Shown piece after piece: positions 1,697 through 27,147 of a stretch of 32,000 bases of DNA; the stretch's first letter is position 1, and each line of letters starts with the position of its first letter. The DNA lies in the NCBI GenBank assembly GCA_047651235.1, contig CP178758.1, forward strand, positions 630,001-662,000, read 5' to 3'. The notes under the pieces were generated by a model that saw only the letters and a list, made by a program, of their open reading frames with translations, made no database searches and was not told the origin of the DNA. The DNA is from Candidatus Electrothrix yaqonensis (GTDB lineage: Bacteria > Desulfobacterota > Desulfobulbia > Desulfobulbales > Desulfobulbaceae). A program made the position numbers and the translations under genes.

Positions 1697-1979
1697 TTAT
1701 ATTTTGGGGTTCATTAATCAACTAACGGTAAGCCTCATAACTGCTTCTGTCAACTGGAAAAGGAGGAGCCTTCTCCCTTCACTCCCCGCCGTTAAAACGG
1801 CGCGCTATTCTCTGCCGCCCCTCCGGGGCTGGGGCCGGAGGAAGACAGCGTCCCGGAGGTACTGCCGGAAATAGCCCGGTCTTTCAAGACCGGGATCGAA
1901 CTTCAAGCCCCTGTCCAGCGTAGACACGAAGAATTTCCCTCTGCCCTTCACCCATCGGGCCGATACCAAAGAAGATTAG

Positions 1980-4313
<2,334 letters not shown>

Positions 4314-4679
4314 TCGGAACATCTTTGCCCCGATGCAGTCATCGGAGTGCTGGGCAGAACTGTTCGCAAGCGCTCTGCCTGTTACACCACGCAGATGGTA
4401 TTGCAGAGTTTCTGCAGGTAAAGGGAGGCAGGGTGCAGCTTTGAGGGAGCTGGAAATTGCTTCGCTCTCCCCAATCTGCAGGACGATCCACAGGCCAGTT
4501 TTAAGGTTATGATTTTGCTGCGTACCGTTATCCTGTTGCTCATTCTTGCATTCGGACTAATAGGATCAGAGCAATATGCCTCGTTGAAAATCTGGTCGCA
4601 TGTGCCCTATAATGTGGATCAGGAAAAGGTATTGGTTGGCGAGCCGGATTATCTATTGGGTACTTAACAAAGTTAATCA

Positions 4680-5027
4680 TTGAAAACAGGTACTCATAAG
4701 GTGAATCTGCTGTTTGTCTGTAGCGAAAATAAATTAAGGAGTCCGACAGGAGAGGAGATCTTTTCAAAATATGAGGGTATTAACGCTATCGGAGCGGGCA
4801 CCAATAAGGATGCGGTCACACCCGTAAGCGGTGACTTGATTGAATGGGCGGACATCATTTTTGTTATGGAAAAATCTCATCGCAACAAAGTATCGAAAAA
4901 ATTCAGCCCGTTGCTGAAAGGAAAAAAGTTGGTTTGTCTCGATATTCCGGATAAATATGAACGTATGGAACCGCAGTTAATTCGCTCGCTTGAGGCCAGA
5001 GTTTCCAAGCATGTTCTGCTGAAATAG
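4680..5027 (+). CDS. Small low-molecular-weight phosphotyrosine-phosphatase-like protein (COG4551-type)
   Basis: CX5R(S) P-loop motif LLFVCSENKLRSP near the N-terminus; length about 110 aa. The start is uncertain: TTG at 4680 or GTG at 4701. Confidence 0.7.
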   Translation: MKTGTHKVNLLFVCSENKLRSPTGEEIFSKYEGINAIGAGTNKDAVTPVSGDLIEWADIIFVMEKSHRNKVSKKFSPLLKGKKLVCLDIPDKYERMEPQLIRSLEARVSKHVLLK

Positions 5028-5229
5028 ACGATCTGTTGAACTAAACGAGAAACAGGAGCAGGAGATGCCTGGAGCAAGGCATGTTTACACGAGAACCTCA
5101 GCAGATATCGGCAACAAGAGAGCTCCAGGTGGTCTTTGATACGTTAAACTGGGTGTTCAGTGAAATTAATCCGTGAAATGACCTTTGTGGTCGGAATCAT
5201 TCAGTTGATGAATTGGCGAAAAAATTATT

Positions 5230-5528
5230 GTGAATTCTAAATCCAATAGAATAGCTCTGCTGATTGACGCGGATAACATTTCACATATTTCTATTGAACT
5301 GATATCAATACACTGAGAAATGCTATTGCGGTATCATGGACAAACGGCGAATGGGTGCCGCTTTCGACAGTCGGTTCATATCTGTCAAAGCATGCTTTTT
5401 TTGGTCCGAAAGACTATGGTTTTACCCGGTTGAGCGATCTGATGAAGCAAATCGATCTTTTTGAGATAAAGCGGGGAAAGGGGCAAAGTTATATTGTACG
5501 GGATATACGCAATAAAAAGGCAACCTGA
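5230..5528 (+). pseudogene. NYN-domain/LOTUS(OST-HTH) protein remnant with internal deletion and frameshift
   Basis: The first 28 codons (VNSKSNRIALLIDADNISHISIELISIH*) match the NYN-domain N-terminus and stop at 5314-5316. A different frame from 5298 reads …WTNGEWVPLSTVGSYLSKHAFFGPKDYGFTRLSDLMKQIDLFEIKRGKGQSYIVRD…*, a typical C-terminal LOTUS/OST-HTH domain. About 200 aa of NYN core are absent. Confidence 0.5.
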
Positions 5529-5574
5529 CCCTGTTATTCCATTTTCTGAATTTCAACAAACAGGAGGATACACC

Positions 5575-6366
5575 ATGAAGAAAGCAATACTCACTGCCTG
5601 CAGTCTGTTTGCCCTGCTGGTCGCCAGCCCGGTTATGGCGGAAGATGTCAATGTGGAAGAGGTCATTAACAAGGCCAACTTGGCTGCCTATTATGCCGGT
5701 GATGACGGCAAGGCTGAGGTTAACATGACCATCACGGACAGCCAGGGCCGTGAACGCAACCGCGAGTTCATCATTCTTCGTAAGGACAAGGAAGACGGCG
5801 GACCGCAGTTCTTTTACGTTTATTTCAAGAAACCTTCGGATGTCAGCAAGATGGTCTTTATGGTCCATAAAAATGTGGACAAGGACGATGACCGCTGGAT
5901 GTACCTGCCTGCCCTGGATCTGGTCAAGCGGATTGCCGCCTCGGACAAACGTACCTCCTTTGTCGGCAGTAATTTCATGTACGAGGATGTCTCCGGCCGG
6001 AATCTGTCTGAGGATACCCGTGAGCTGGTGAAGAGTACCGACACCCATTATGTGATCAAGAATACCCCCAAGAAGCCGGATGATGTGGAGTTCTCTTCCT
6101 ATACGGTGCAGATCGACAAAAAAACCTTCCTGCCGGTCAAGGCGGTCTACCTGGACAAGAACGGCAAGGAGTACCGCATTGTCGAGGCCACAAAGGTTGA
6201 GGAAGTTGACGGCATTCCCACAGTGACCGAATCCAAGGTGACCGATCTGGCAGCAGGCAGTCACACCGTGTCCAAATTCAGTAATGTGAAGTACAATATC
6301 GGGCTGAAGGAAAATATCTTCACAGAGCGCTACCTGCGCCGGCCGCCCCGTGAAGCCAGAAGATAG
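5575..6366 (+). CDS. Outer-membrane lipoprotein-sorting (LolA-like) family protein
   Basis: Signal peptide MKKAILTACSLFALLVASPVMA; AGGAGG RBS at 5562-5567. Family-typical motifs DDRWMYLPALDLVKRIAASDKRTSFVGSNFMYEDV. The internal ATG at 5575 was used rather than the ORF-track start at 5494. Confidence 0.7.
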   Translation: MKKAILTACSLFALLVASPVMAEDVNVEEVINKANLAAYYAGDDGKAEVNMTITDSQGRERNREFIILRKDKEDGGPQFFYVYFKKPSDVSKMVFMVHKNVDKDDDRWMYLPALDLVKRIAASDKRTSFVGSNFMYEDVSGRNLSEDTRELVKSTDTHYVIKNTPKKPDDVEFSSYTVQIDKKTFLPVKAVYLDKNGKEYRIVEATKVEEVDGIPTVTESKVTDLAAGSHTVSKFSNVKYNIGLKENIFTERYLRRPPREARR

Positions 6367-11073: not shown

Positions 11074-14000
11074 TCAATGCTCCCAGGACCAGAGCAGGTC
11101 GGCACCGCTTGTTTTTGCATTTGTTGCTGTTTCAACGGAAAAACCGTATTTCAAATCATACCGGGCTTTGAAGGTTCCTCCGGCACCGGTCAGATCCTTA
11201 CCGTAACTGATATACAGATCCTTATAGATCTCTTTTCCCATCACCAGCGAGACATCCGAGGCGTCATCTCCTCCGCCTATGCTCAGATCCACCAGATTTT
11301 CCATATCCAGGGTTCCGAGAGGATCAACCTGCTTGAGGAGCGCACCGCCGCCGACCTTGCCCAGGGTGGCGGCCGCCGGAGAAAGGGCTGCATCTTGTCC
11401 GGACGAGGACTTGGAGATATCCTGACCGGTCAGCAGATAAGAAAGGATCTCAGAGTCCTCCATCGGGGTATTTGAATACAGCCTCATATTCATGTCATTC
11501 ACTTTGCCTGCTAGGCGGAGGCCTACTTCAATTTTATCTGTTTCCCTGGATGCCTGAATATCCAGTCCCGGATCATCTATCGGGCCGCCCTGATAAAAAA
11601 CCCGTCCCCGGCTGAGCTGCAGAACATTTCCTTCAAATTCAAACGTGGCATCACGCAGATCCAGGCTACCGAGCCCGGTGACAGGGCCTCCGGGCTTTGC
11701 GTTGATCTGCAGGCTGCCGTCCAGAAACCCTTTCAGTCCGAAGGTATTTAACGCCACTTCTTTGCCCATGACCAGCTTGAGATCAAGGAATATGGGCGAG
11801 GTTCCTTGCTGTTCGGTTCCGTCTTCATCAACCACAATTACATCCTTGGAGGAAGAAACCGCTCCGCTGAATCCCACAGGTGCTATTGTGGCTTTGGGCA
11901 GAACCACCGTGCCGTTGAGCGTAGTGCCTGTTTTACCATAAAGCAGATGAAGATCCGGGCTGATCACCACCCGGTACTCCGGAAGGTTGACTGCCTGAAA
12001 ATCTTTCCCTGAAAGAGTGAAATCGGCGGTCCACTGCTGGTCGGTGTTCTGCTGAATAAGATGCTGAACAACGCCTTCGGCCTGAAGAATTCCTGCCCCG
12101 GAGGCTAACTGCACTTTCACCTTGTTGGACCGGCCGTTCCCTTCAAGTCCGAGGCTTATTTTTTTAAGGTTGATACCGGCTGCCGGAAGATAAATTTCTC
12201 CCTCCCTGTCGGCACTATTGGTGAGTGCTATCTCACCGTTCAGGCCGGGGCTGCCCGCTGTTCCGGTGAAACGGACCGTCCCGGCAAGACCTCCGTTGGC
12301 CTGAACCGCATCATTGCTGAAGCGGGCGAAAGGCTGGAGATCCCTGATGTTCAGATTCAGCTGACCGCTCAGGGGCATTGCTTCAGGTTGACTGAAATCT
12401 CCGCAGTTTTTTACTGTAACATCCAGATCCGTATCACTGCCGTCCTGAAACCGGGTCTGCACCTGCAGCATGGCGGTATTCTCACGGAGGCGGGCAGTTA
12501 TTTTGTTATCCTCCCAGCGCCAGACGGTTTTGCCGCTTTTTTCCTCTGCATCTTCCGCATCATTGACCGTGGTCAGGCTAAGCTGCGGCAAAGTGACTGT
12601 CAGCTCTGCCTGCTCCGGGATGGCGCCTTTGCCCTGTGCTGTCAGCGATACGTTTGCCATGCCGTCGAGATCAGGAACAGGCAGATCCCATTCCTTGAGC
12701 AGACTGAGGGCAAAATCTTTGGCCTCAGCGGAGTCTACCTGCCAGCCATTTTCTTGGTTCCATGTTCCACTGAGTGCGATCTGCAGGGGATCATGACCAA
12801 GGGTAAAATCGGTTACTGCACAGTCTGTTGCGGAGAAAAGCAGCTCCGCCGGGCGCAGGGTTTTCCAGTCGCCGAACTGCCTGCTGAACAGGACGAGCTC
12901 AGTCAGTTTTCCCTGCCATTGTTGTTCCTGCATCCCGCCTGCCGCCGTAAGCTGCGCCTTGCCCCGCCTGCTGTCTGCAGAAAAATGCAGGGTATGCTGC
13001 TCCGTGCTGCCCTGGACCTGCAAAGAGGCCCTGCTGATTTCTTCCTCTTTGATGCGCAGCCCGTTGATCCTGATTTCTGCATCAATTACTCCGTTCTTTG
13101 CCAGGTCCGCTTTGATTCTGCTGTCCAGTTTATTCACGCTGTAGTTCTTAAACTGCAGGGCGGATGCCTGCAGGTCCAGCGCCAGATCAGGCTGCTCCCG
13201 CGTGCCGCTCAGCTTCCCCTGAACATGAAACTGTCCTGCAGCATCGGGCAGAAACGTTGCCAGTTTCTTTGCGTCCGCCTGAAAGGTGAGATCAAACTGA
13301 CCGGTCGGATCAGCCGAGCCGTTGACCTGCAGATCAGCAGTTCCCAACTGCAGGTGCAGATTATCCAGCAGCACGGCTGTGCCGTTGATCTGTGCCCTGC
13401 CGCTGCCGCTCAGGGGATGGCTGCGCAGTTCTCCGTCCAGCCGGTCAAGCCGGACATCCGCCACCAATTTGTCTGCGTCTTTCTTTCCCTGACTCCGAAT
13501 TGCAGCGCTGATCTTTCCCGGCCATTGCGGGAGAAACAGGGACGGATCAAGCTGTTTGCCGGTCAGTTCCGCCTGCCAGGACAGGCCGTCTCCCCAGCCG
13601 ATATGACCGGTCGCGCTGAGGGGCATGGCCTCATTCAGGAGCAGAGAGAACTTGTTGATTGTCATGCCGCTCTCCTTCCCCTCCATGATCAGGTCGGCAT
13701 CGAGTTCACTCTGCAGATTACGGAGAGCATAGCCGTTGATATCAAGATCGGTTCCCTGCAGCGAGACAGCAATGCCGGGATTCTTCGGGTTGCCGTTTGC
13801 CGTGCCCTGGAGTTGAATGCTCCCGCTGTATTCCGGCAGAAAGGCGGAAATATCCTCTGCCGAGGCCTGAACTGCGAGATCAAGCGAGGCGTCTGCGGCA
13901 ATGCGTCCGTCAACCTCTGCACGGGCTGACCCGGCCTGCAGTTTGAGGGTCTTGAGGTTTATTCCCTGCTTGTCCAGTTCCATGCCGCCGCTGCCTGTCA

Positions 14001-15306: not shown

Positions 15307-16380
15307 CTAGGCCAGCCGCACATCCAGCACATCCACCAGCCTGCCGGAGTAGTCGTTACGGATCATATCCCATAAGGCGGTGTAGTCGTTGACCGTGACC
15401 TCCAGAGTGCTGACTGCCGAGCCGCTGAACCCGGGCAGGATGTATTCGCCGTTCTGGGTCACGGTCACCTGGTCCGCAACCAAGCCTCCCTCCGTCATGT
15501 CCAGCAGACTGAAGCGCAGGCAGTTGTCCGCCAGATCCTGGATCACCTGAATGCGCAGCATGGTGTCCGCGCTCACCGTGCCGCCGTTGATGCCGACATG
15601 GGCTGTCAGGCTGCTGCCGGTGAGGATGCCGGTCTCCGGCACTGTGGGCAGGCCCAGCCCGGGCACGGTCAGCGGGGTGCGGAGCATCCGGCCGCAGGTG
15701 CCGGTGCGCAGGGTACCGTGCTCGGTGTAGCGGGTGGTCACGGAAAGCCGGTATTCGTTGTTCCAGGGATCCTCCTGGGCAGGCACATCAGGCATGAGCA
15801 CGATCTCGCTGTTGGTGATGGTGCCGACCCGGCTCTGCACCGCACTGCCGCTGCGGGTGCCCTCGATCAGGCAGTGCTGGCCGCTGTCGTTGCGGTCGAA
15901 CAGGAGATTGCAGCCCGTGATGCGGAGCATGCCGTCCGGGCGCAGCACATCGCGCAGCCCCAGCACTGTGTCTTCCGCAGCAGTAATCACCGGCGCCTTC
16001 TCGGTCGCAGCCAGGCGCTGCGTCTGCGCATTCCGGCGGAATTCCGTGACAAAAGGAGCCGAGACGCGGACGTTGAGCTGCAGGCACTGGTCCGGCGGGG
16101 GCAGCGGGTCGTCCGGGTTGTCCAGCCTGGCCGTGAATGAGGGAAACCAGGTGCAGCAGCCCTCCTTGGTCACCTGCTCGCCGCTCAGCAGCCGCAGGGC
16201 AATGACCTCATCCTCGGTGTCGAGCAGGGTCAGGATGTCCTTTCTGCTGAAGTTGGGATGGCGCAGGGCAATGTCCGCCGCAATCTCCTCCCGGCCTGCC
16301 GAGCCGCGCGGCACAAAACGGATGCGGTAGGACAGGGGCGTGGTCAGCGGATTCTCCTCGATGGTGTACTGAATGGACAT
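15307..16380 (-). CDS. HU-like (HU_HIG-type) N-terminal domain / DUF4469-like Ig-fold protein with an extra C-terminal region
   Basis: The N-terminus SIQYTIEENPLTTPLSYRIRFVPRGSAGREEIAADIA…RKDILTLLDTEDEVIALRLLSGEQV and the following …FPSFTARLDNPDDP…LQLNVRV…LRITGCNLLFDRND…LRTGTCGRML follow the architecture I recall for Bacteroidota HU-like+DUF4469 proteins. It is visibly more GC-rich than its neighbours. No HMM check was done. Confidence 0.45.
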   Translation of the reverse strand: MSIQYTIEENPLTTPLSYRIRFVPRGSAGREEIAADIALRHPNFSRKDILTLLDTEDEVIALRLLSGEQVTKEGCCTWFPSFTARLDNPDDPLPPPDQCLQLNVRVSAPFVTEFRRNAQTQRLAATEKAPVITAAEDTVLGLRDVLRPDGMLRITGCNLLFDRNDSGQHCLIEGTRSGSAVQSRVGTITNSEIVLMPDVPAQEDPWNNEYRLSVTTRYTEHGTLRTGTCGRMLRTPLTVPGLGLPTVPETGILTGSSLTAHVGINGGTVSADTMLRIQVIQDLADNCLRFSLLDMTEGGLVADQVTVTQNGEYILPGFSGSAVSTLEVTVNDYTALWDMIRNDYSGRLVDVLDVRLA

Positions 16381-16622: not shown

Positions 16623-16725
16623 GCATCGTAGGGGCGGCTCCCTGTGGCCGCCCTGATACGGGCGGATGCGGCAACGGGCAATCACGGGGGATTGCCCCTA
16701 CATTGCCCTGCCTGCCCCTGCATCC

Positions 16726-18105
16726 CTACCGCCCCTTCATCGCCGCCCGCAGCTCTTCCAATGCCTTGCGGTCGCTCCCCAGATCAGGATGACCAATGGC
16801 CTCATCAATCTCCACGGTACGGGCCATGTATCGCTCCGCCCTGGCAAGGTCGCCCTGATCCTTATAGATATGACCGATGTTCCAGCTTGTCACTGCTTCC
16901 CCGTATCTATTGCCTATCTCCTGCTGAATTGCCAGACTCTGCTCGTAATACTTCAATGCCGTGGCATAGTCGCCCCGTGCCTTGTAAATCTGGCCGATGT
17001 TATTCAGGGAATTATCTTCCCCGGCCCGGTCGCCGATCTCTTGGCGGATGGCAAGGCTCTGCTCCAGGTACTTGAGGGCCGTGTCGTACTCGCCCCGTGC
17101 ATCGTAAATCTGGCTGATGTTGTTCAGGGTGGTGCCTTCCCCGGCCCGGTCACCAATCTCTTGACGGATGGCAAGGCTCTGCTCCAGATACTTGAGGGCC
17201 GTAGCGTACTCGCCCTGAGCATCGTAAATCTGACTGATGTTATTCAGGGTGGTGCCTTCCCCGGCCCGGTCGCCGATCTCCCGGCAGATGTCCAGGCTCT
17301 GCTCCAGATACTTGAGGGCCGTGGCATAGTCGCCCCGTGCATCATAAATCTGGCTGATGTTGTTCAGGGTGGTGCCTTCCCCGGCCCGGTCGCCGATCTC
17401 TTGGCTGATAGCAAGGCTCTGCTCATACAGGGGCAGGGCCTCGCTGTACCGGGCAATGCGGTACAGGTCATTGCCTGCCTCGTTCAGGTAGTAGGCCCGA
17501 TCCTTCTTCTCCCCCTCCGGCAGCAGGGCAGCAGCCTTTTGCCAGTACTCTGCCGCCTTGGCATAGCGCAACTGTACTTCCTGCAACTTAGCCTGGTCAA
17601 CATTGGTTGTGGCCGCAGAGATACGCCGCTGCTTGGCAGCCTGCTCCAGCTCCTCAATAGCCTTCAGGTCAAGGGCCTCTGCCTGATTCAGCAAGTCCTC
17701 AGCCTTGTCGTACTCACCCGCCTCAATGGCCTGCCCAGCCTCCTGCTTCAGGCGTTGCACCTCCGGGTCTTCGGACTGCACTGTTGCCAGCCGGGCCAGC
17801 AGTTCCTTGTGGGTGGCGGCAATCTCCCGTAGCTTGGCATCCAAGTCATCACGGGGTATCTGTTGCTCCTCCAGTATCTTGAAGAAGTTGCGCAGTGCCA
17901 GGTCGGTAATTGAGAGGTGATCCTTCAGCTCATCAGCGCGTTCCTCGGAGATGCCGTAGTGCTTATTTACCGTCACATTACCGGTGCCGGAGAAGATGCT
18001 GTTATCTCCATCCACCTCCTGCCCGATGTTGTCCTGCCTGCCTATCGCCCCATCGCCCTGAGCAATGTTCTGGTCACCGTCCCTGTTGTCGAATCGATTG
18101 GTCAT
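16726..18105 (-). CDS. TPR-repeat protein, paralog 1 (G/D/N-rich N-terminus, coiled-coil region, five 40-aa TPR-pair units)
   Basis: 459 aa with repeats of IGDRAGEGTTLNNISQIYDARGDYATALKYLEQSLAIRQE (TPR_12-like). RBS GAAGG lies 7 nt before the ATG, and the gene starts 21 nt after the vapC stop. Confidence 0.85.
   Translation of the reverse strand: MTNRFDNRDGDQNIAQGDGAIGRQDNIGQEVDGDNSIFSGTGNVTVNKHYGISEERADELKDHLSITDLALRNFFKILEEQQIPRDDLDAKLREIAATHKELLARLATVQSEDPEVQRLKQEAGQAIEAGEYDKAEDLLNQAEALDLKAIEELEQAAKQRRISAATTNVDQAKLQEVQLRYAKAAEYWQKAAALLPEGEKKDRAYYLNEAGNDLYRIARYSEALPLYEQSLAISQEIGDRAGEGTTLNNISQIYDARGDYATALKYLEQSLDICREIGDRAGEGTTLNNISQIYDAQGEYATALKYLEQSLAIRQEIGDRAGEGTTLNNISQIYDARGEYDTALKYLEQSLAIRQEIGDRAGEDNSLNNIGQIYKARGDYATALKYYEQSLAIQQEIGNRYGEAVTSWNIGHIYKDQGDLARAERYMARTVEIDEAIGHPDLGSDRKALEELRAAMKGR
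16810..17409. repeat. 5 x 120-bp coding tandem repeat (TPR units) in paralog 1
   Basis: 120-nt periodicity is visible directly (…ggtggtgccttccccggcccggtcgccgatctc…cttgagggccgt…). Confidence 0.85.
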
Positions 18106-18126
18106 GGTTGCCTTCTGCTGGCTTTG

Positions 18127-18516
18127 TTACCAGATCAGCTCAACCGGGTAGGCGGGAAAGGCCCGGTCGCAGCTGATGATCGGCAGCCTTTCGCAGATGG
18201 CCTGGGCAATAATCAGCCGGTCAAACGGGTCTCTGTGATGCAGAGGGAGGTCAAGCAGCCGGGAGAGATGGTCGGGGTGTATCTGGAGCAGCCTGATCTG
18301 ATGCACTTCGATCTGCTGCGGGATAAGGGGGTCAAAGGGCTGAGCAAGCTCCAGCTTGCCGATAGTGATCTTGATCGCGATCTCCCAGAGGGAGGCCAGA
18401 CTCAGGTACAACCTGTTGTCAAAGTCCTCCATAAGGTCGCGGGCCGGGCGGCTCAGACGCTCGCTGCCGCCGATGAACCAGAGGAATGCGCAGGTGTCGA
18501 GCAGCACCCGCATCAC
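18127..18516 (-). CDS. vapC: PIN-domain toxin VapC
   Basis: MRVLLDTCAFLW…SLWEIAIK…HHRDPFDRLIIAQA…IISCDRAF shows the acidic PIN residues in the usual positions. It overlaps the upstream antitoxin by 4 nt. Confidence 0.85.
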   Translation of the reverse strand: MMRVLLDTCAFLWFIGGSERLSRPARDLMEDFDNRLYLSLASLWEIAIKITIGKLELAQPFDPLIPQQIEVHQIRLLQIHPDHLSRLLDLPLHHRDPFDRLIIAQAICERLPIISCDRAFPAYPVELIW

Positions 18517-18737
18517 ATATACTCCTCAAAGTCATCCGGGGTTCGGTCAAAGTCCTCGGCTATGCTGATCAGACCTTTTGCGCTGCCGAACTGCCGCTTC
18601 CCGGCCGGTTTTTTCCGTACAGCCACCAGCCTGACAATGGGCTGTCCTTCCCGGGTGATGATGATGTCGCTGCCTGCAACCGTCCGTCTGAGCAGGTCGG
18701 CAAAGCAGGTCTCCGCCTTCTTGATATCTATGTTCAT
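18513..18737 (-). CDS. Phd/YefM-type antitoxin partnered with VapC
   Basis: MNIDIKKAETCFADLLRRTVAGSDIIITREGQPIVRLVAV…GSAKGLISIAEDFDRTPDDFEEYM is the typical prevent-host-death fold plus DFD tail. The internal ATG at 18737 with a GGAGG RBS was used rather than the ORF-track start at 18821. Confidence 0.8.
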   Translation of the reverse strand: MNIDIKKAETCFADLLRRTVAGSDIIITREGQPIVRLVAVRKKPAGKRQFGSAKGLISIAEDFDRTPDDFEEYM

Positions 18738-18900
18738 GCTTTCCCAAGCGCCTCCGACCGGGTTCCTGTTCCATCGCCTCTGCTGACTGTAGATTGTACT
18801 CGGTGCGCCGCGTTTTATCAAGGGCCTGCCCCTATTGCCCCGCGATGAATCACGGGGCTCTTATCAGTTGTCCCTCCGGGACAGGGAAAACAGGCCGTCC

Positions 18901-20562
18901 CTACCGCCCCTTGATTTCCGCCCGCACCGCTTCCAATGCCTTGCGTTCCCATTCCAGATCAGGATGCCCGATGGCCTCTTCAATCTCCACGGTGCGGGCC
19001 ATGTACTGCTCCGCCTTGGCAAGGTCTCCCTGCTTCTTGTAGATCATGCCGATGTTCCAGCTCGTCACTGCCTCTCCTGCCCGGTCGCCGATCTCTTGGT
19101 GTATAGCAAGAGCCTGCTCCAGATACTTGAGGGCCGTGTCGTACTCGCCCCGTGCCTTGTAAATCTGGCCGATGTTGTTCAGGGTGGTGCCTTCCTGACT
19201 CCTATCACCGATCTCCCGGCAGATGGCAAGGCTCTGCTCCAGATACTTGAGGGCCGTGCCGTAATCACCCCGTGCATCGTAAATCTGGCTGATGTTGTTC
19301 AGGGTGGTGCCTTCCCCTGCCCGGTCGCCGATCTCTTGGCGGATGGCAAGGCTCTGCTCCAGGTACTTGAGGGCCGTGTCGTAGTCGCCCCGTGCATCAT
19401 AAATCTGGCTGATGTTGTTTAGGGTGGTGCCTTCCCCGGCCCGGTCGCCGATCTCCTGGCGGATGGCAAGGCTCTGCTCCAGATACTTGAGGGCCGTAGC
19501 GTAGTCGCCCTTGGCGTATGCAGTCGTGGCAAGGTTGTTCAGGGTGGTGCCTTCCCCTGCCCGGTCGCCGATCTCTTGGTAGATAGCAAGGCTCTGCTCC
19601 AGATACTTGAGGGCCGTGGCATAGTCGCCCCGTGCCTTGTAAATCTGGCTGATGTTGTTCAGCGTCGTGCCTTCCCCGGCCCGGTCGCCGATCTCTTGGC
19701 GGATGGTAAGGCTCTGCTCCAGATACTTGAGGGCCGTGGCATAGTCGCCCCGTGCCCGATGAATGCCTGCGATGTTATTCAGGGTGGTGCCTTCCCCGGC
19801 CCGGTCGCCGATCTCTTGGCGGATGGTAAGGCTCTGCTCCAGATACTTGAGGGCCGTGGCATAGTCGCCCCGTGCATCATAAATCTGGCTGATGTTGTTC
19901 AGGGTGGTGCCTTCCCCGGCCCGGTCGCCGATCTCTTGGCTGATAGCAAGGCTCTGCTCATACAGGGGCAGGGCCTCGCTGTACCGGGCAATGCGGTACA
20001 GGTCATTGCCTGCCTCGTTCAGGTAGTAGGCCCGATCCTTCTTCTCCCCCTCCGGCAGCAGGGCAGCAGCCTTTTGCCAGTACTCTGCCGCCTTGGCATA
20101 GCGCAACTGTACTTCCTGCAACTTAGCCTGGTCAACATTGGTTGTGGCCGCAGAGATACGCCGCTGCCGGGCAGCCTGCTCCATCTCCTCAATGGCCGCA
20201 AGGTCACGGGCCTCGGCCTGGTTCAACAAGTCCTCAGCCTTAGTGTACTCACCCGCCTCAATGGCCTGCCCGGCCTCCTGCTTCAGGCGTTGCACCTCCG
20301 GGTCTGCGGACTGCACTGTTGCCAGCCGGGCCAGCAGTTCCTTGTGGGTGGCGGCAATCTCCCGCAGCTTGGCATCCAGGTCGCCAGGCGGCACCTGCTG
20401 CTCCTCCAGTATCTTAAAGAAGCTGGCAAGGGCGGACTCGGTGACGGCCAAGTTGCCTGCAAGCTCGGCAAAGTCCTTGGAGGAGAGGCCGTAGTTCACA
20501 TCGCGGCCCGCAACAACATTACCGCTCCCCCACAGCCTCTGGATGAGTCTCTGCAGCATCAT
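18901..20562 (-). CDS. TPR-repeat protein, paralog 2 (eight 40-aa units)
   Basis: 553 aa with the same coiled-coil plus TPR architecture as paralog 1. The start ATG overlaps the stop of the upstream small ORF (ATGA). Confidence 0.85.
   Translation of the reverse strand: MMLQRLIQRLWGSGNVVAGRDVNYGLSSKDFAELAGNLAVTESALASFFKILEEQQVPPGDLDAKLREIAATHKELLARLATVQSADPEVQRLKQEAGQAIEAGEYTKAEDLLNQAEARDLAAIEEMEQAARQRRISAATTNVDQAKLQEVQLRYAKAAEYWQKAAALLPEGEKKDRAYYLNEAGNDLYRIARYSEALPLYEQSLAISQEIGDRAGEGTTLNNISQIYDARGDYATALKYLEQSLTIRQEIGDRAGEGTTLNNIAGIHRARGDYATALKYLEQSLTIRQEIGDRAGEGTTLNNISQIYKARGDYATALKYLEQSLAIYQEIGDRAGEGTTLNNLATTAYAKGDYATALKYLEQSLAIRQEIGDRAGEGTTLNNISQIYDARGDYDTALKYLEQSLAIRQEIGDRAGEGTTLNNISQIYDARGDYGTALKYLEQSLAICREIGDRSQEGTTLNNIGQIYKARGEYDTALKYLEQALAIHQEIGDRAGEAVTSWNIGMIYKKQGDLAKAEQYMARTVEIEEAIGHPDLEWERKALEAVRAEIKGR
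18985..19944. repeat. 8 x 120-bp coding tandem repeat (TPR units) in paralog 2
   Basis: The same 120-nt unit as in paralog 1. Seven units are near-identical and the terminal unit is divergent. Confidence 0.85.
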
Positions 20563-20798
20563 TGCCGCTCCACCTTCACATCACCGGTACCGGAGACGAT
20601 ATTGCTGTCCCCCTTCACTGCCTGGTTGACCCGTACCTCCTCAGCACCGGCAGCACGGCCTCTGCCCCTGTGGAACAGAGGAGCGAACAGTCTGGTAATG
20701 AGGAAGTACAGGACACCGAGTGCTGTCAACCCCGTACCGCTCCAGGTTACCTCCGGATGTTCCTTCAGATACTGCAGTATGTCAGCAAGCTGTTCCAT
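20559..20798 (-). CDS. Small single-pass membrane protein translationally coupled to TPR paralog 2
   Basis: MEQLADILQYLKEHPEVTWSGTGLTALGVLYFLITRLFAPLF-HRGRGR…KGDSNIVSGTGDVKVERQ*. A GGAGGGA RBS precedes the ATG at 20798. The tail motif SGTGDVKV matches SGTGNVTV in the N-terminus of paralog 1. Confidence 0.5.
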   Translation of the reverse strand: MEQLADILQYLKEHPEVTWSGTGLTALGVLYFLITRLFAPLFHRGRGRAAGAEEVRVNQAVKGDSNIVSGTGDVKVERQ

Positions 20799-21004
20799 AT
20801 GGACTCCCTCCATTCAGTAGGATATCATCGGTCAACCTCCTCACCATAACCCAATATCCCGCCTTCCTCCAGCAGAAACAGCCTGCCGGGCCGGAGAGCA
20901 GACCCCGCCTGCTCCTCCGCCTGAGCCGATTGAGGACAAAGCTGTAGTGCTCGGCAGTCTCCTCAGCGACCGACAGGGCGGGGCCGCAAGGTTCCGCCTT
21001 TCTT

Positions 21005-21469
21005 TTATGCCCGGCCTGCCCAGTTGATGCGCAGAACAAGCTCCCGGACTGTTTCGTAGATCTTCTCGTCACTGCCAGCCCTTGGCCCGGCGATATTCAG
21101 TACGCTGACCGCATGTTTTGACAGCCATTGTTCAACCGTGCGGACAGCGCTGTCTATGGCGTAATATTCCATATTGAGATGCAGACAGGGGCGGTCATAG
21201 CGGATCGCCAGGGCTTCGGTCAGGGCGGAACCGCCGGTGAGCGGCCCGGACGAGACGATCAGGGTGGCGTCGCTTTCCACCACATTTTTCCGGGTCCGGT
21301 CCCGGTAGCGGTACGAGTCGAGTTCCTGCAGGCAGTAATGCTGGGCAAGCGGGCCGTCTTCTGTTATTCTGCCGCGCGGCAGCCAGCCGCCGTGGGGGAT
21401 ACCCAGCTCTATGGCGGCATCCAGAGCAGCGCGGTCAGCCCCTGTCTGCCCTCCTGAAATAATCTTCAT
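21005..21469 (-). CDS. Circularly permuted YpsA/SLOG-family protein (formerly 'putative molybdenum carrier')
   Basis: MKIISGGQTGADRAALDAAIELGIPHGGWLPRGRITEDG…RTRKNVVESDATLIV is a hallmark of this family. The internal ATG at 21469 with an AGGA RBS was used. Confidence 0.6.
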   Translation of the reverse strand: MKIISGGQTGADRAALDAAIELGIPHGGWLPRGRITEDGPLAQHYCLQELDSYRYRDRTRKNVVESDATLIVSSGPLTGGSALTEALAIRYDRPCLHLNMEYYAIDSAVRTVEQWLSKHAVSVLNIAGPRAGSDEKIYETVRELVLRINWAGRA

Positions 21470-21596
21470 ATCCTGTTTTTCCTGTCCGTTTGTCGTTTCC
21501 GGCTTGGCAGACAGCGGATAATAACGTATTTTTTTCTTATAGGCATCTTCTTCCTGTTGCGCAACCGTTAATTCCCTGAATGCGGAGGGCCGGATC

Positions 21597-22631
21597 ATGA
21601 GAGAGGCAGAGCTGTACATCTGGGAAAAGGACAAAATGGTTGCATGTTCTCTCTGCAGTCACCGCTGTCATATCGGGATAGGAAAACGGGGGATCTGTGG
21701 GGTCCGGGAGAATCGGGACGGAAATCTGTATTCCCTGGTGTACGGCAGGCTGATTGCCGGAAGCGCTGATCCGATTGAAAAAAAACCGCTTTTTCATTTT
21801 CTTCCGGCAAGCCGTTCCTATTCTGTTGCCACAGTGGGCTGCAATTTTTCCTGTCAGCATTGTCAGAACTACCGTATTTCCCGGTATCCGCAGATACATC
21901 GGGGCAGGATTTCGGGCACTCGCTTTACTCCGGAGCAGGTTGTCGAGGCTGCGGAACAGAGCGGCTGCCAAAGCATCAGCTATACCTATGTGGAACCGAC
22001 CATTTTTTATGAATTTGCCCGCGACTGCATGGAGCTGGCCCATGAACGGGGCCTGGCCAATATCTTTGTCAGCAACGGCTACATGACCCCGGAATGCTGC
22101 CGGGAACTCACCTCTCTGCTTGACGGTATCAACATTGACATCAAAGCATTTTCTGATGATTTTTATCGGACGGTCTGTAAAGCATCCCTGCAGCCTGTCC
22201 TGGATACCGTGCGTTTAATGCGGGAACTCGGAGTCTGGGTGGAGGTAACCACGCTGGTTATTCCCGACCTGAACGATTCGGCTGAAGAACTGCGGAACAT
22301 CGCCGCCTTCATCAGCAGTATCGACCCGGCAATTCCCTGGCATGTGAGCGGTTTCCATCCGACATACAAGATGAAAGACCGGGAACCGACCTCACTGGCT
22401 TCCTTGGATGGAGCGCGGCGGATCGGACTGGACATGGGGCTGCGTTATGTGTATGAGGGCAATATCCGCACTGATAACGGAGAAAGTACCTTCTGTCCGA
22501 CCTGCAGGGCAGAACTGATCTCCCGGAGCGGTTTTCTGGTCCGCAGCAACCGGCTCGATAACAACGGCAGGTGTCCCTCCTGCGGAAAGCATATTGAAGG
22601 CTGCTGGCAGTTTTCCGCTGAACGATTGTGA
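21597..22631 (+). CDS. AmmeMemoRadiSam-system radical SAM enzyme (PflA-like activase fold)
   Basis: N-terminal Cys cluster (CSLCSHRC…GICGVR) and the radical-SAM motif CNFSCQHCQN. A C-terminal zinc-ribbon-like pair, CPTC…CPSCG, is also present. Confidence 0.8.
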   Translation: MREAELYIWEKDKMVACSLCSHRCHIGIGKRGICGVRENRDGNLYSLVYGRLIAGSADPIEKKPLFHFLPASRSYSVATVGCNFSCQHCQNYRISRYPQIHRGRISGTRFTPEQVVEAAEQSGCQSISYTYVEPTIFYEFARDCMELAHERGLANIFVSNGYMTPECCRELTSLLDGINIDIKAFSDDFYRTVCKASLQPVLDTVRLMRELGVWVEVTTLVIPDLNDSAEELRNIAAFISSIDPAIPWHVSGFHPTYKMKDREPTSLASLDGARRIGLDMGLRYVYEGNIRTDNGESTFCPTCRAELISRSGFLVRSNRLDNNGRCPSCGKHIEGCWQFSAERL

Positions 22632-25023: not shown

Positions 25024-25305
25024 GTGTTCAGCCTCACAATTTTTTTTGCTGATTTAACAGGAGGTCCAGCTGCGTAGCAGTTATATTGCTGGCAGAGTTG
25101 TCGTGTGGTATGCAAAGGTCTTCTGGATGGACGGCCTTTTTCTATTTCAGGTAGATCAACCAGTATCCGGAATGCGCTGGAATGAAATGCGCTTTACTTC
25201 AGGCCAGAGGGCTGTTAAAAATAGCTGTGCACCGAGCGATTGGTGCAGGCGCTGGTGCGGGGATTGGATTTATTTTATTTATGACTACAGTTGCAGCAGG
25301 ATAAG

Positions 25306-27147
25306 ATGAACGATTTGTCATCAGCAATTGAAACATTATATGAAAACAGGCAGAAGTTTATCGTAATTGGGCTGACAGGGAGGACAGGTTCAGGGTGTAC
25401 TTCAACAGCTGAATTGCTCAAACAGGACATTCAGACTTTAAAACTCCCTAAGCCACATATTGTAAATAAAAATGAAGAGAGAAAATATCGAATTGTTTAC
25501 GAATTTGCTAGCAGTAATTGGAAGCCATTCCATGTGATCCAAGTAAAAGATGTAATAACTTCATTTATTTTGGAAAACCCCTTTGATAAATTTCTCGCCT
25601 ACGTAACTGAAAAAATAGAACATGAAAATATAGAGTCGCTTCTAAAAAAGAATATAGAAGAAGAATATTCAAAGCTTCACGAGGAAAGAGTTTTTCTTAA
25701 AAAATTAAGAAAGAAGATGGAAAAACGGAATAAAGTAAATAAGAAAAAAACAGAAGAACGTCGAGAGAAGTCCTATAAATTTTATTTTGAAAAACTTCCT
25801 CCATTCACAGAGAAACTAAAAAAAATTTTAAACGATCTTGCTGGTGATAGCTATACGTCACTCTATCAAGTTGCTGGAAACAATATACGGTCATCAGGTA
25901 ATGCCCTTGACGAAAATTTCGATTCAAAAAATATCCTGAGACTGGCCATAAGAGCAAATAAACTAATAAAAATATTTACAAACTTGGCTAAGGCAAACAA
26001 AGAAGAAGTATATATTGTTATTGATGCTATACGGAATCCATTTGAAGCAATTTTTTTTCGAGAACGCTATGCCGCATTCTACTTAATGTCTATTAACACA
26101 GATAATAACGATAGAATTTATAGATTGAAAAAACTCCTTGATCTTAATGACAGTCAACTAGCAAGTATTGACAATAATGAATATGAAAAGAAATTAAGAG
26201 AAGCCGAGGTATTCTACTCTCAAGATATATCAAAATGTATAGAATTAGCAGATATACATATAAATAATCCTCAAAAAGGTGAAAACGATTTCATAACGCT
26301 CAAAAGACAGTTATCTTGTTATATTGCTCTGATAATGCATCCTGGGTTAATAACTCCTTCAAGTACAGAACGTTGCATGCAGGTAGCATATACTGCAAAG
26401 TTAAATTCAGCATGCCTTTCCAGGCAAGTAGGTGCTGCTGTAGCAGACAGAAATTTTTCGATCAAATCTATTGGCTGGAACAACTCTCCTGAAGGGCAAC
26501 CTCCATGTGCTTTAAGAAATATAGAGCATCTTATTGATAACGAAGACCAAGAAGCATATAGTCACTATGAAAAGTATAATAAAAATTTTAGAGATTTCGT
26601 AAGAAATAGATATCAAGACAAAATTGATTCTCAAGAGATACGAGATAAACTTTGCGGACGAAATATATCTTATTGTTTCAAAGATCTTCAAAATAGTTTA
26701 GAGGAAGAAAAAAATCAAGTTCATACCCGTTCATTACATGCAGAGGAAAATGCATTCTTACAACTGGCAAAATATGGTGGATCAGGTATTCAAGGAGGAA
26801 TATTATTTACAACTGCCAGTCCTTGTGAATTATGCTCAAAGAAAGCCTACCAGCTTGGAATAAAGAGAATAATTTTCATTGATCCCTATCCTGGAATTGC
26901 CAAGGAGCATGTTTTAGATATTGGTGCAACAATTCCAAAGTTAGAACTTTTTCACGGAGCAATAGGCCGGGCTTTCAATCAGCTTTTCGAGCCTATTTTA
27001 CCCTATAAAGATGAGCTGTCTTTCATTCTCAATACCGAATGGCCCCGACATATTGTCGAACTGGCAGGGAGCTGGAAAGGCGCTTTTCCTTCTGCCGAGG
27101 AGCTGCGCTCGAATAACGGTAAGGATTTTCCGAGAGAAGATCTGTAG
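25306..27147 (+). CDS. P-loop (kinase-like) / CMP-dCMP-type deaminase fusion of the anti-phage dCTP-deaminase type, with a chimeric 3' tail
   Basis: N-terminal P-loop IVIGLTGRTGSGCTS, with Cys where the Walker A Lys is expected. The C-terminal deaminase zinc motifs are HAEENA and PCELCSKK. The gene is strongly AT-rich except for the last ~100 nt. The architecture matches the published dCTP-deaminase defence genes as I recall them. Confidence 0.7.
   Translation: MNDLSSAIETLYENRQKFIVIGLTGRTGSGCTSTAELLKQDIQTLKLPKPHIVNKNEERKYRIVYEFASSNWKPFHVIQVKDVITSFILENPFDKFLAYVTEKIEHENIESLLKKNIEEEYSKLHEERVFLKKLRKKMEKRNKVNKKKTEERREKSYKFYFEKLPPFTEKLKKILNDLAGDSYTSLYQVAGNNIRSSGNALDENFDSKNILRLAIRANKLIKIFTNLAKANKEEVYIVIDAIRNPFEAIFFRERYAAFYLMSINTDNNDRIYRLKKLLDLNDSQLASIDNNEYEKKLREAEVFYSQDISKCIELADIHINNPQKGENDFITLKRQLSCYIALIMHPGLITPSSTERCMQVAYTAKLNSACLSRQVGAAVADRNFSIKSIGWNNSPEGQPPCALRNIEHLIDNEDQEAYSHYEKYNKNFRDFVRNRYQDKIDSQEIRDKLCGRNISYCFKDLQNSLEEEKNQVHTRSLHAEENAFLQLAKYGGSGIQGGILFTTASPCELCSKKAYQLGIKRIIFIDPYPGIAKEHVLDIGATIPKLELFHGAIGRAFNQLFEPILPYKDELSFILNTEWPRHIVELAGSWKGAFPSAEELRSNNGKDFPREDL

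Follow-up and report, generated by a model that had tools for sequence, protein, structure and literature searches.

The EAD-coupled conflict systems known from multicellular bacteria combine a constant TPR region with N-terminal effectors or adaptors that vary (PMC7159879, Kaur, Burroughs, Iyer, Aravind 2020; PMC8195603, Kaur et al. 2021), a logic described in PMC8195603. According to PMC7159879, effectors are recruited by adaptors of the EAD8 type, and effector positions are also taken by TPR or coiled-coil 'superstructure-forming' domains. Here, a cluster of minus-strand genes from Candidatus Electrothrix yaqonensis was analyzed, in which two TPR genes (TPR1 and TPR2) enclose a Phd-VapC toxin-antitoxin (TA) pair, and TPR2 overlaps the gene of a small membrane protein, referred to as the micro-protein. 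The window, i.e., the whole stretch of 32,000 nt that was analyzed, covers positions 630,001 to 662,000 of contig CP178758.1, and all coordinates are counted from its first nucleotide. In our judgement, the chances are roughly even that this locus represents a conflict-type sensor or scaffold in a lineage-expanded form that lacks an effector, with one of the paralogues tethered to the co-translated membrane micro-protein or signalling through it. The likeness to the EAD-coupled systems lies in the relatives of the TPR proteins, which carry EAD8, EAD1, EAD2, TIR, or trypsin-like N-termini on the constant TPR region. It further lies in the dispersal of the family as solitary genes and in its frequency in filamentous or multicellular bacteria (cable bacteria, Parabeggiatoa). 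In contrast to these systems, the window proteins are without an EAD or effector, and the window open reading frames (ORFs) that were scanned did not include an NTPase core.

The features of the locus are arranged as follows.

20559..20798, minus strand: membrane micro-protein, 79 aa, the TGA stop of which overlaps the TPR2 ATG as ATGA
18901..20562, minus strand: TPR2, 553 aa, with the helical module at approximately aa 28-168 (nt 20059-20481), then approximately 8 TPR_12 repeats
18793..18821, minus strand: sigma-70-like promoter match TTGATA-17-TACAAT (10/12, a consensus match only), within the 163-nt gap upstream of the antitoxin gene
18513..18737, minus strand: Phd/VapB-type antitoxin, 74 aa (Pfam, NCBIfam)
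18127..18516, minus strand: VapC PIN-domain toxin, 129 aa, overlapping the antitoxin stop (Pfam PIN)
16726..18105, minus strand: TPR1, 459 aa, starting 21 nt past the vapC stop, with a G/D/N/Q-rich disordered part (aa 1-44), the helical module (aa 54-194, nt 17524-17946), and approximately 6 TPR_12 repeats
15307..16380, minus strand: HU-like DNA-binding/DUF4469 protein, 357 aa, with a promoter-like site of its own at 16467-16439

An ORF check of the window reproduced the five genes that an earlier note on this DNA had proposed, including their order, the ATGA coupling, the 163-nt gap between TPR2 and the antitoxin gene, the phd-vapC overlap, and the 21-nt spacing ahead of TPR1. Neither between TPR2 and phd nor between vapC and TPR1 was a terminator-like site found.

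The longest ORF of the micro-protein spans 20559-20813. Translation in fact begins at the second ATG, position 20798, which yields 79 aa; a GGAGGG ribosome-binding site precedes this codon, and all homologues share that start, beginning with MEQL. The protein is composed of a short acidic N-terminal helix, the motif HPEVTWSG, one transmembrane (TM) helix, a basic RGRGR, and the Gly-rich strand motif VNQAVKGDSNIVSGTGDVKVERQ at the C-terminus. It is identical (100%) to a 79-aa hypothetical protein of Ca. Electrothrix sp. YB6, and searches against Pfam (up to E<=1, chance matches only) and PADLOC gave no match. The micro-protein family comprises 33 clusters at 90% identity, 28 of which are standalone proteins of 66-81 aa with an invariant HPEVTWSG and the conserved end '...GTGDVKVERR'. 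The next gene overlaps the micro-protein gene in all five loci examined: by 4 nt (ATGA) in the window, where the partner is TPR2, and in L018 from Methylovulum (Gammaproteobacteria), where it is a 580-aa TPR protein; by 4 nt in L034, with a 137-aa partner without TPR repeats; and by 11 nt in L035 and L036, each followed by a TPR protein. All cable-bacterial partners start with M-x3-[KR]-L-[IL]-Q-[KR]-x2-G-S-G-N-x-V-A-G, and this TPR2-type N-terminus is present in L034, L035, and L036. The corresponding motif of TPR2, MMLQRLIQRLWGSGNVVAGRDV, is specific to micro-protein partners, and the partner motif resembles the Gly-rich motif at the micro-protein C-terminus.

A split gene next to a near-duplicate raises the question of an artefact, in which the micro-protein and TPR2 would be parts of one fused gene broken by a frameshift or sequencing error, and the second TPR copy would stem from misassembly of repetitive TPR DNA. 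Fused versions do exist among the relatives, with in-frame fusions of the micro-protein and the module in L001, L008 (E. gigas), P0037, and P0061, and the TPR1 repeats interrupt short-read assemblies made from the same samples. However, standalone proteins whose C-terminal end is conserved make up 28 of the 33 clusters, four further loci show the split as well, one of them in another phylum, and the frame offset of the overlap differs between loci, e.g., between the window and L035. The paralogues, moreover, differ in approximately 10% of their DNA, in repeat number, and in their N-termini. We consider an artefact very improbable. A programmed frameshift at the junction was rejected as well: the TPR2 frame is closed by a stop 7 codons upstream of its ATG, no slippery heptamer was found at the junction, and the offset in L035 is a different one. 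Since the frame offsets differ and the TPR2 frame is closed upstream, the split is read as a conserved two-gene arrangement and as neither a frameshift error nor a programmed shift. The micro-protein and TPR2 are probably translationally coupled, and the pair represents a compact, conserved two-gene system that can be tested in a heterologous host.

Both TPR proteins contain the constant region of the family, which consists of Gly/Asn/Gln-rich strand motifs, a module made up entirely of helices, and a very regular TPR_12 array (Pfam E=4e-63 and 7.5e-81 in the two proteins); weak matches to TPR_MalT and to AfsR TPR regions were obtained as well. The conserved helical segment that the earlier note had seen in both is backed by 357 BLASTP identities, with gaps solely where the number of TPR repeats differs, and by 90% DNA identity across 989 nt, beginning at the helical module. 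Judged by their sequences, TPR1 and TPR2 are tandem paralogues of a family that is lineage-expanded in cable bacteria. Their extreme N-termini differ, and the membrane peptide accompanies TPR2 only; of the duplicated 'TM peptide + TPR' unit that had been proposed, the paralogy of the TPR genes stands and the duplication of the peptide does not. Pfam, NCBIfam, and PADLOC detected TPR families only and no enzymatic domain in TPR1 and TPR2, as had been claimed before. Exact searches of an assembly index for TPR2 and for VapC found neither protein.

In the AlphaFold2 model of TPR1 (pLDDT 90.5), residues 1-44 are disordered, followed by helices at 54-64, 68-81, 85-108, 114-128, 132-177 (46 residues), and 181-194, and by regular TPR helix pairs from approximately aa 200 on. 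No export signal was found in TPR1. The G/D/N-rich stretch at aa 1-44 had been put forward, together with the TM helix, as an effector-like part. We rejected it in that role, as it is a disordered linker motif (pLDDT <50) that recurs across the family, while the pair formed by the TM micro-protein and its TPR partner is real and conserved. At the DNA level, the arrays are built from a 120-nt tandem unit (86% matching) with 4.1 copies in TPR1 (16937-17424) and 7.3 copies in TPR2 (19079-19959), and the copy number varies both between the paralogues and among orthologues. The variation among the 13 TPR repeats is concentrated at positions 14, 15, 18, 20, 24, 35, 37, and 38 of the 40-aa unit; diversifying selection was considered for these few positions, but the data are too few for such a claim. 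A regular TPR_12 array, probably the ligand-binding part, is also a mark of STAND/NLR-type TPR sensors (Avs/AVAST, AP-ATPase-TPR, MalT-like). Unlike these, the proteins analyzed here have no NTPase domain, and oligomerisation would fall to the helical module.

The wider family was assessed with an exhaustive HMMER search using TPR2 aa 1-200 as the query and counting cluster representatives, which resulted in at least 1285 representatives at E<=1e-3; 631 of them remain at a cut-off of E<=1e-10. With TPR1 aa 1-215 as the query, 79 close homologues were obtained, and the named ones among them belong nearly all to Electrothrix, Electronema, or cable-bacterial 'Desulfobulbus' bins. Cable bacteria supply 20 of the 22 genome loci, several of which come from one and the same genome assembly, and named examples from elsewhere are Methylocaldum, Methylovulum, Parabeggiatoa, and a deltaproteobacterium. 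The module opens with a three-helix unit, '...ELGVT..AL..FFKILEQ..VP..DLD..LREIA..YKEL...', and continues with more helices, one of them long. A hydrophobic helix is usually located approximately 50-80 residues upstream of the module, and in most non-cable relatives a TM helix precedes the module. The longest relatives carry an extra globular N-terminal domain ahead of the module: among 27 long N-termini, Pfam assigned TIR_2 to 6, EAD8 to 5, a trypsin-like domain (Trypsin_2) to 2, and EAD1 and EAD2 to 1 each. An example of a TIR-TM-module-TPR relative is WP_086132975.1 from Methylocaldum. On reading, the N-terminus of one Parabeggiatoa protein resembles an alpha/beta hydrolase, which Pfam did not confirm. 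EAD8-TM-module-TPR forms are even among the closest non-identical relatives (55-58% identity). In other bacteria, the constant region appears as the sensor or scaffold half of conflict-type proteins, joined via a membrane helix to a variable N-terminal domain (TIR, trypsin-like, alpha/beta-hydrolase-like, or Death-like EAD adaptor). The link to effector-TPR conflict proteins, to which the earlier note had pointed, holds for the family through the TIR_2, EAD, and trypsin-like N-termini of the relatives.

For the module itself, Pfam gave no match even at E<=1 (TPR-type or chance matches only in the N-terminal 200-215 aa scanned), and no sequence relatives of it were found in the PDB. A Foldseek search of its AlphaFold2 model (pLDDT 92.5) against the PDB returned no match with an E-value below 2, and a profile search from a 24-sequence module alignment returned only 24 short matches and added nothing. 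Term searches in PMC7159879 and PMC8195603 found no mention of a constant helical module, a membrane helix between effector and TPR, or a split micro-protein, and term searches in the papers on the YB6 genome and on E. gigas likewise found none of the family, of TA systems, or of defence genes. In the sources searched, the helical module, the effector-TPR membrane helix, the split micro-protein form, and the cable-bacterial expansion were not found described. What emerges is a large module (at least 1285 representatives) without a matching Pfam family or solved fold, by which, via a membrane helix, TIR, protease, and Death-like adaptor domains are linked to TPR arrays.

A second family of small Gly-rich proteins is encoded directly upstream of TPR genes of the family in L002 (8865-9224), L003 (9353-9778), and L025 (7654-7911), and it also forms the C-terminus of P0047. 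Its members have the N-terminal motif 'G.QNIAQGD.AIGK' in common with TPR1 and a conserved helical tail, '..LLAEIKARLPELPDK.QVKLRNAVEE..', and Pfam searches up to E<=1 gave chance matches only.

Membrane topology was read from charge bias (the positive-inside rule) alone. The more basic flank is N-terminal in 32 of 48 short-stub and in 15 of 17 long-N-terminus single-TM relatives (47/65 overall), and several relatives have signal-peptide- or lipobox-like N-termini. In those relatives, the module and TPR array are predicted to be periplasmic, with the TIR, EAD, or protease domain in the cytoplasm. Relatives showing the charge bias or signal-like N-termini include P0133, P0135, P0138, P0160, P0116, P0164, P0169, P0194, P0196, and P0198. 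In the micro-protein, the bias is reversed. As RGRGR follows the helix and an export signal is missing from TPR1, the prediction for the cable-bacterial forms is a place in the cytoplasm or on the inner membrane face.

Beyond domain architecture and gene linkage, we infer the following mechanism for the effector-less sensor or scaffold. The micro-protein would sit in the membrane with its N-terminus outside and its C-terminus inside, and its C-terminal Gly-rich strand motif would pair with the N-terminal motif of TPR2, tethering TPR2 to the inner membrane face. The TPR array would bind a protein or peptide ligand, and the helical module would drive oligomerisation. While oligomerisation would activate the TIR, protease, or adaptor domains of effector-bearing relatives, in the cable-bacterial case it would cluster the membrane peptide, or the assembly would act as a scaffold or decoy.

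A bolder reading would turn the whole unnamed family into transmembrane receptors, with a TPR ectodomain in the periplasm that a single membrane helix connects to a TIR, protease, or Death-like adaptor domain in the cytoplasm, and with the micro-protein/TPR2 pair as a split, effector-less derivative. Such a layout is reminiscent of Toll-like and death receptors. The TIR-TM-module-TPR relatives are predicted by charge bias only to be N-in/C-out (15/17 of the long-N-terminus forms), as expected for a Toll-like receptor-type topology. However, the order is reversed with the TIR domain N-terminal, homology is limited to TIR, and the window proteins are without TIR. If this reading were true, the output would be the micro-protein itself (clustering or permeabilisation, as in abortive infection), and the TA cassettes that recur near the family would flag these loci as immune islets of a multicellular filament. 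We regard it as unlikely.

The TA pair between the two TPR genes is a canonical member of type II VapBC, with which it shares the PIN toxin, the upstream antitoxin gene that overlaps the toxin gene, its own promoter-like site, and a wide distribution as an autonomous unit; this assignment covers 18127-18737 only and extends to neither the TPR genes nor the micro-protein. The antitoxin matched TIGR01552 (24.6 bits vs a cut-off of 20.8) and TA_VapB (E=9e-10) among the NCBIfam hidden Markov models (HMMs), and in Pfam PhdYeFM (E=9e-5) as well as DUF2281 (E=1e-4), the latter reflecting a VapB/DUF2281-like C-terminus. VapC matched Pfam PIN above the cut-off (E=4e-15), and its acidic residues D7, E45, D96/D99, and D117 (D-E-D-D) are visible in the translation. 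In tripartite toxin-antitoxin-chaperone (TAC) systems, the third gene encodes a SecB-like chaperone, and the antitoxin carries a chaperone-addiction extension. A TAC system was rejected here, with TPR1 not SecB-like and the C-terminus of the 74-aa antitoxin occupied by the VapB/DUF2281 toxin-binding region.

The position of the pair nevertheless suggests an integrated module, in which VapC would be the effector, the TPR proteins would sense a trigger and control Phd-VapC, and the membrane peptide would be a second output. Co-oriented TA genes are found directly upstream of a TPR gene not only in the window (21 nt), but also in L002 (DUF2281-PIN-TPR) and L035 (DUF6364-PIN-peptide-TPR), and the order TPR, antitoxin remnant, TPR, HU-like in L007 matches the window. 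In addition, TA genes are approximately 3-4 times enriched near the family. This was estimated from Pfam toxin-type matches among small ORFs in 23 loci, with the window excluded: 8 matches (PIN x4, ParE x2, HigB, HipA-N) were located within 2 kb of TPR genes (87.5 kb) and 5-6 (PIN x3-4, BrnT, HepT) beyond 3 kb (238.6 kb), giving a binomial p of approximately 0.016-0.05, which is only suggestive, as the loci are partly orthologous or paralogous.

However, VapC has at least 582 metagenomic relatives, and 59 of its best 80 loci (393 kb) also encode a Phd-like antitoxin homologue, whereas the TPR module, the micro-protein, and the HU-like gene were found in 0/80. The TA neighbours of the family belong to unrelated families (PIN, ParE, HigB, HipA-N) in differing orientations, some on the opposite strand (L029, L032), and the VapC and antitoxin of the window have no similarity to the pair at the equivalent position in L002. 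The cassette of the window also has its own promoter-like site, the TA genes of L036 and of L007, where a DUF2281 remnant separates two tandem TPR genes, are decayed next to TPR genes that are still intact, and most family loci have no TA. An integrated module is therefore improbable in our view. Because 0/80 of the closest VapC loci encode the TPR module, Phd-VapC is assigned as an autonomous mobile cassette and a passenger, not as a component of the module. It would have inserted itself between the two TPR genes, from where its transcription probably now reads through into TPR1.

Further TA neighbours are HigBA between the TPR and HU-like genes in L021, MazE-PIN in L014, PIN pairs in L012 and L029, and a ParE/RelE toxin in L006. 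Following our interpretation, TA cassettes are repeatedly encountered next to the family because it sits in variable, defence-island-like spots where they accumulate. Of the TA-containing conflict locus that had been suggested earlier, the conflict-type family and the enrichment of TA genes remain, but the TA genes are unrelated between loci, and the module was found in none of the 80 VapC loci. For annotation, the locus is a warning that a TA pair inside a gene cluster need not belong to it and may be a passenger. Two of these loci deserve a separate remark. L035 of Ca. Electronema sp. TJ contains three tandem TA-type cassettes (DUF4160+DUF2442, HigB+HTH, and DUF6364+PIN; 3901-5858) immediately upstream of its micro-protein/TPR pair. 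L014 has MazE-PIN (11547-12382) between a 58-codon ORF and a ParC/GyrA-like gene with near-identical N-terminal residues, which looks like a TA insertion duplicating the 5' end of its target gene.

A steadier partner of TPR1-type genes than any TA is the HU-like gene. It is found downstream of a TPR gene in the window, L007 (13839-14918), L016 (11702-12775), L021 (11811-12887), L025 (9517-10593), and L036 (4023-5090), with fragments in L002 and L009, and this recurrence spans two cable-bacterial genera with differing outer flanking genes. The HU-like protein is 60% identical to the L036 gene product annotated as PF14848 HU-DNA_bdg and shows a weak DUF4469 match; no sequence relatives of it were found in the PDB. 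TPR1 is the soluble paralogue that forms a conserved pair with this gene, and TPR and HU-like genes together may constitute a real conserved cassette. On the other side of the locus, a 618-aa ORF at 25291-27147 (+) was recognized by PADLOC as a dCTP-deaminase ('dCTPase') defence protein (E=9.6e-143; Pfam dCMP_cyt_deam_1). It is located 4.5 kb from the micro-protein gene in an island of 33-37% GC, and since the surroundings have 50-60% GC, horizontal acquisition of this island is suggested.

Several results weigh against a conflict-type role of the locus. Searches of all locus proteins with the PADLOC-DB 2.0 HMMs, which the earlier note had proposed as a check, revealed no defence system; apart from weak chance matches, only the generic TPR model PDLC01169 responded, and there was no match for the micro-protein, Phd, or VapC. 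An effector or EAD domain was found in none of TPR1, TPR2, and the membrane peptide by Pfam, NCBIfam, and PADLOC, and no NTPase core gene (STAND, vWA-MoxR, GAP1) is present among the window ORFs scanned. Many family members are solitary among housekeeping genes, an EAD8 form included: the EAD8-TM-module-TPR relative P0084 stands alone between PPDK, TopA, and NrdD genes. PMC7159879 notes that EAD-bearing components may stand alone, apart from the core component. The positive-inside rule places the constant region outside the cytoplasm in most single-TM relatives (47/65), as opposed to the predicted cytoplasmic tail of the micro-protein, the TA enrichment is borderline with loci that are not independent, and the strand-motif pairing and the membrane effect are our own conjecture.

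An alternative is that the cable-bacterial members are housekeeping scaffolds, i.e., structural or assembly adaptors of the envelope, the cell junctions, or, via the HU-like partner, the nucleoid. They would then be unrelated to conflict, and the TIR and EAD relatives would represent a separate use of a generic TPR scaffold. A lineage-specific expansion in a filamentous multicellular organism, the lack of an effector domain, the negative PADLOC result, the many loci among housekeeping genes, the conserved HU-like neighbour, and the general nature of TPR proteins as interaction platforms are all in line with such a role. However, the closest non-identical relatives include the EAD8-TM-module-TPR forms, TA cassettes are enriched nearby with a defence gene close, and repeat number, paralogue number, and N-terminal architecture vary in a manner typical of conflict genes. 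We consider the scaffold explanation somewhat unlikely. With regard to the neighbourhoods, on which the earlier note had wanted its reading to be judged, the TA enrichment within 2 kb and the dCTP-deaminase gene 4.5 kb away speak for that reading, but many homologues are found alone among housekeeping genes. For the effector-less conflict-type sensor or scaffold, the biological context is the centimetre-long conducting filament, which is threatened by one infected or damaged cell, and an expanded sensor family of this type would bear on cell policing in multicellular bacteria.

A few minor observations concern the remaining window. Upstream of the micro-protein gene, a circularly permuted YpsA (SLOG) gene at 21005-21634 (-) is accompanied by a divergent radical-SAM gene at 21597-22631 (+). 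Because their longest ORFs overlap by 38 nt head to head, an internal ATG is the probable start codon of the SLOG gene. At 1785-1830 (+), upstream of a KatG-type peroxidase gene (2052-4313), the Rfam sRNA Acido-Lenti-1 was matched with 38.0 bits at a gathering score of 37. Long antisense ORFs at 16666-17832 (+), 388 aa, and 19576-20820 (+), 414 aa, span the TPR genes and mirror their repeats. They are almost certainly not genes, and comparable antisense ORFs lie opposite the TPR genes of related loci too.

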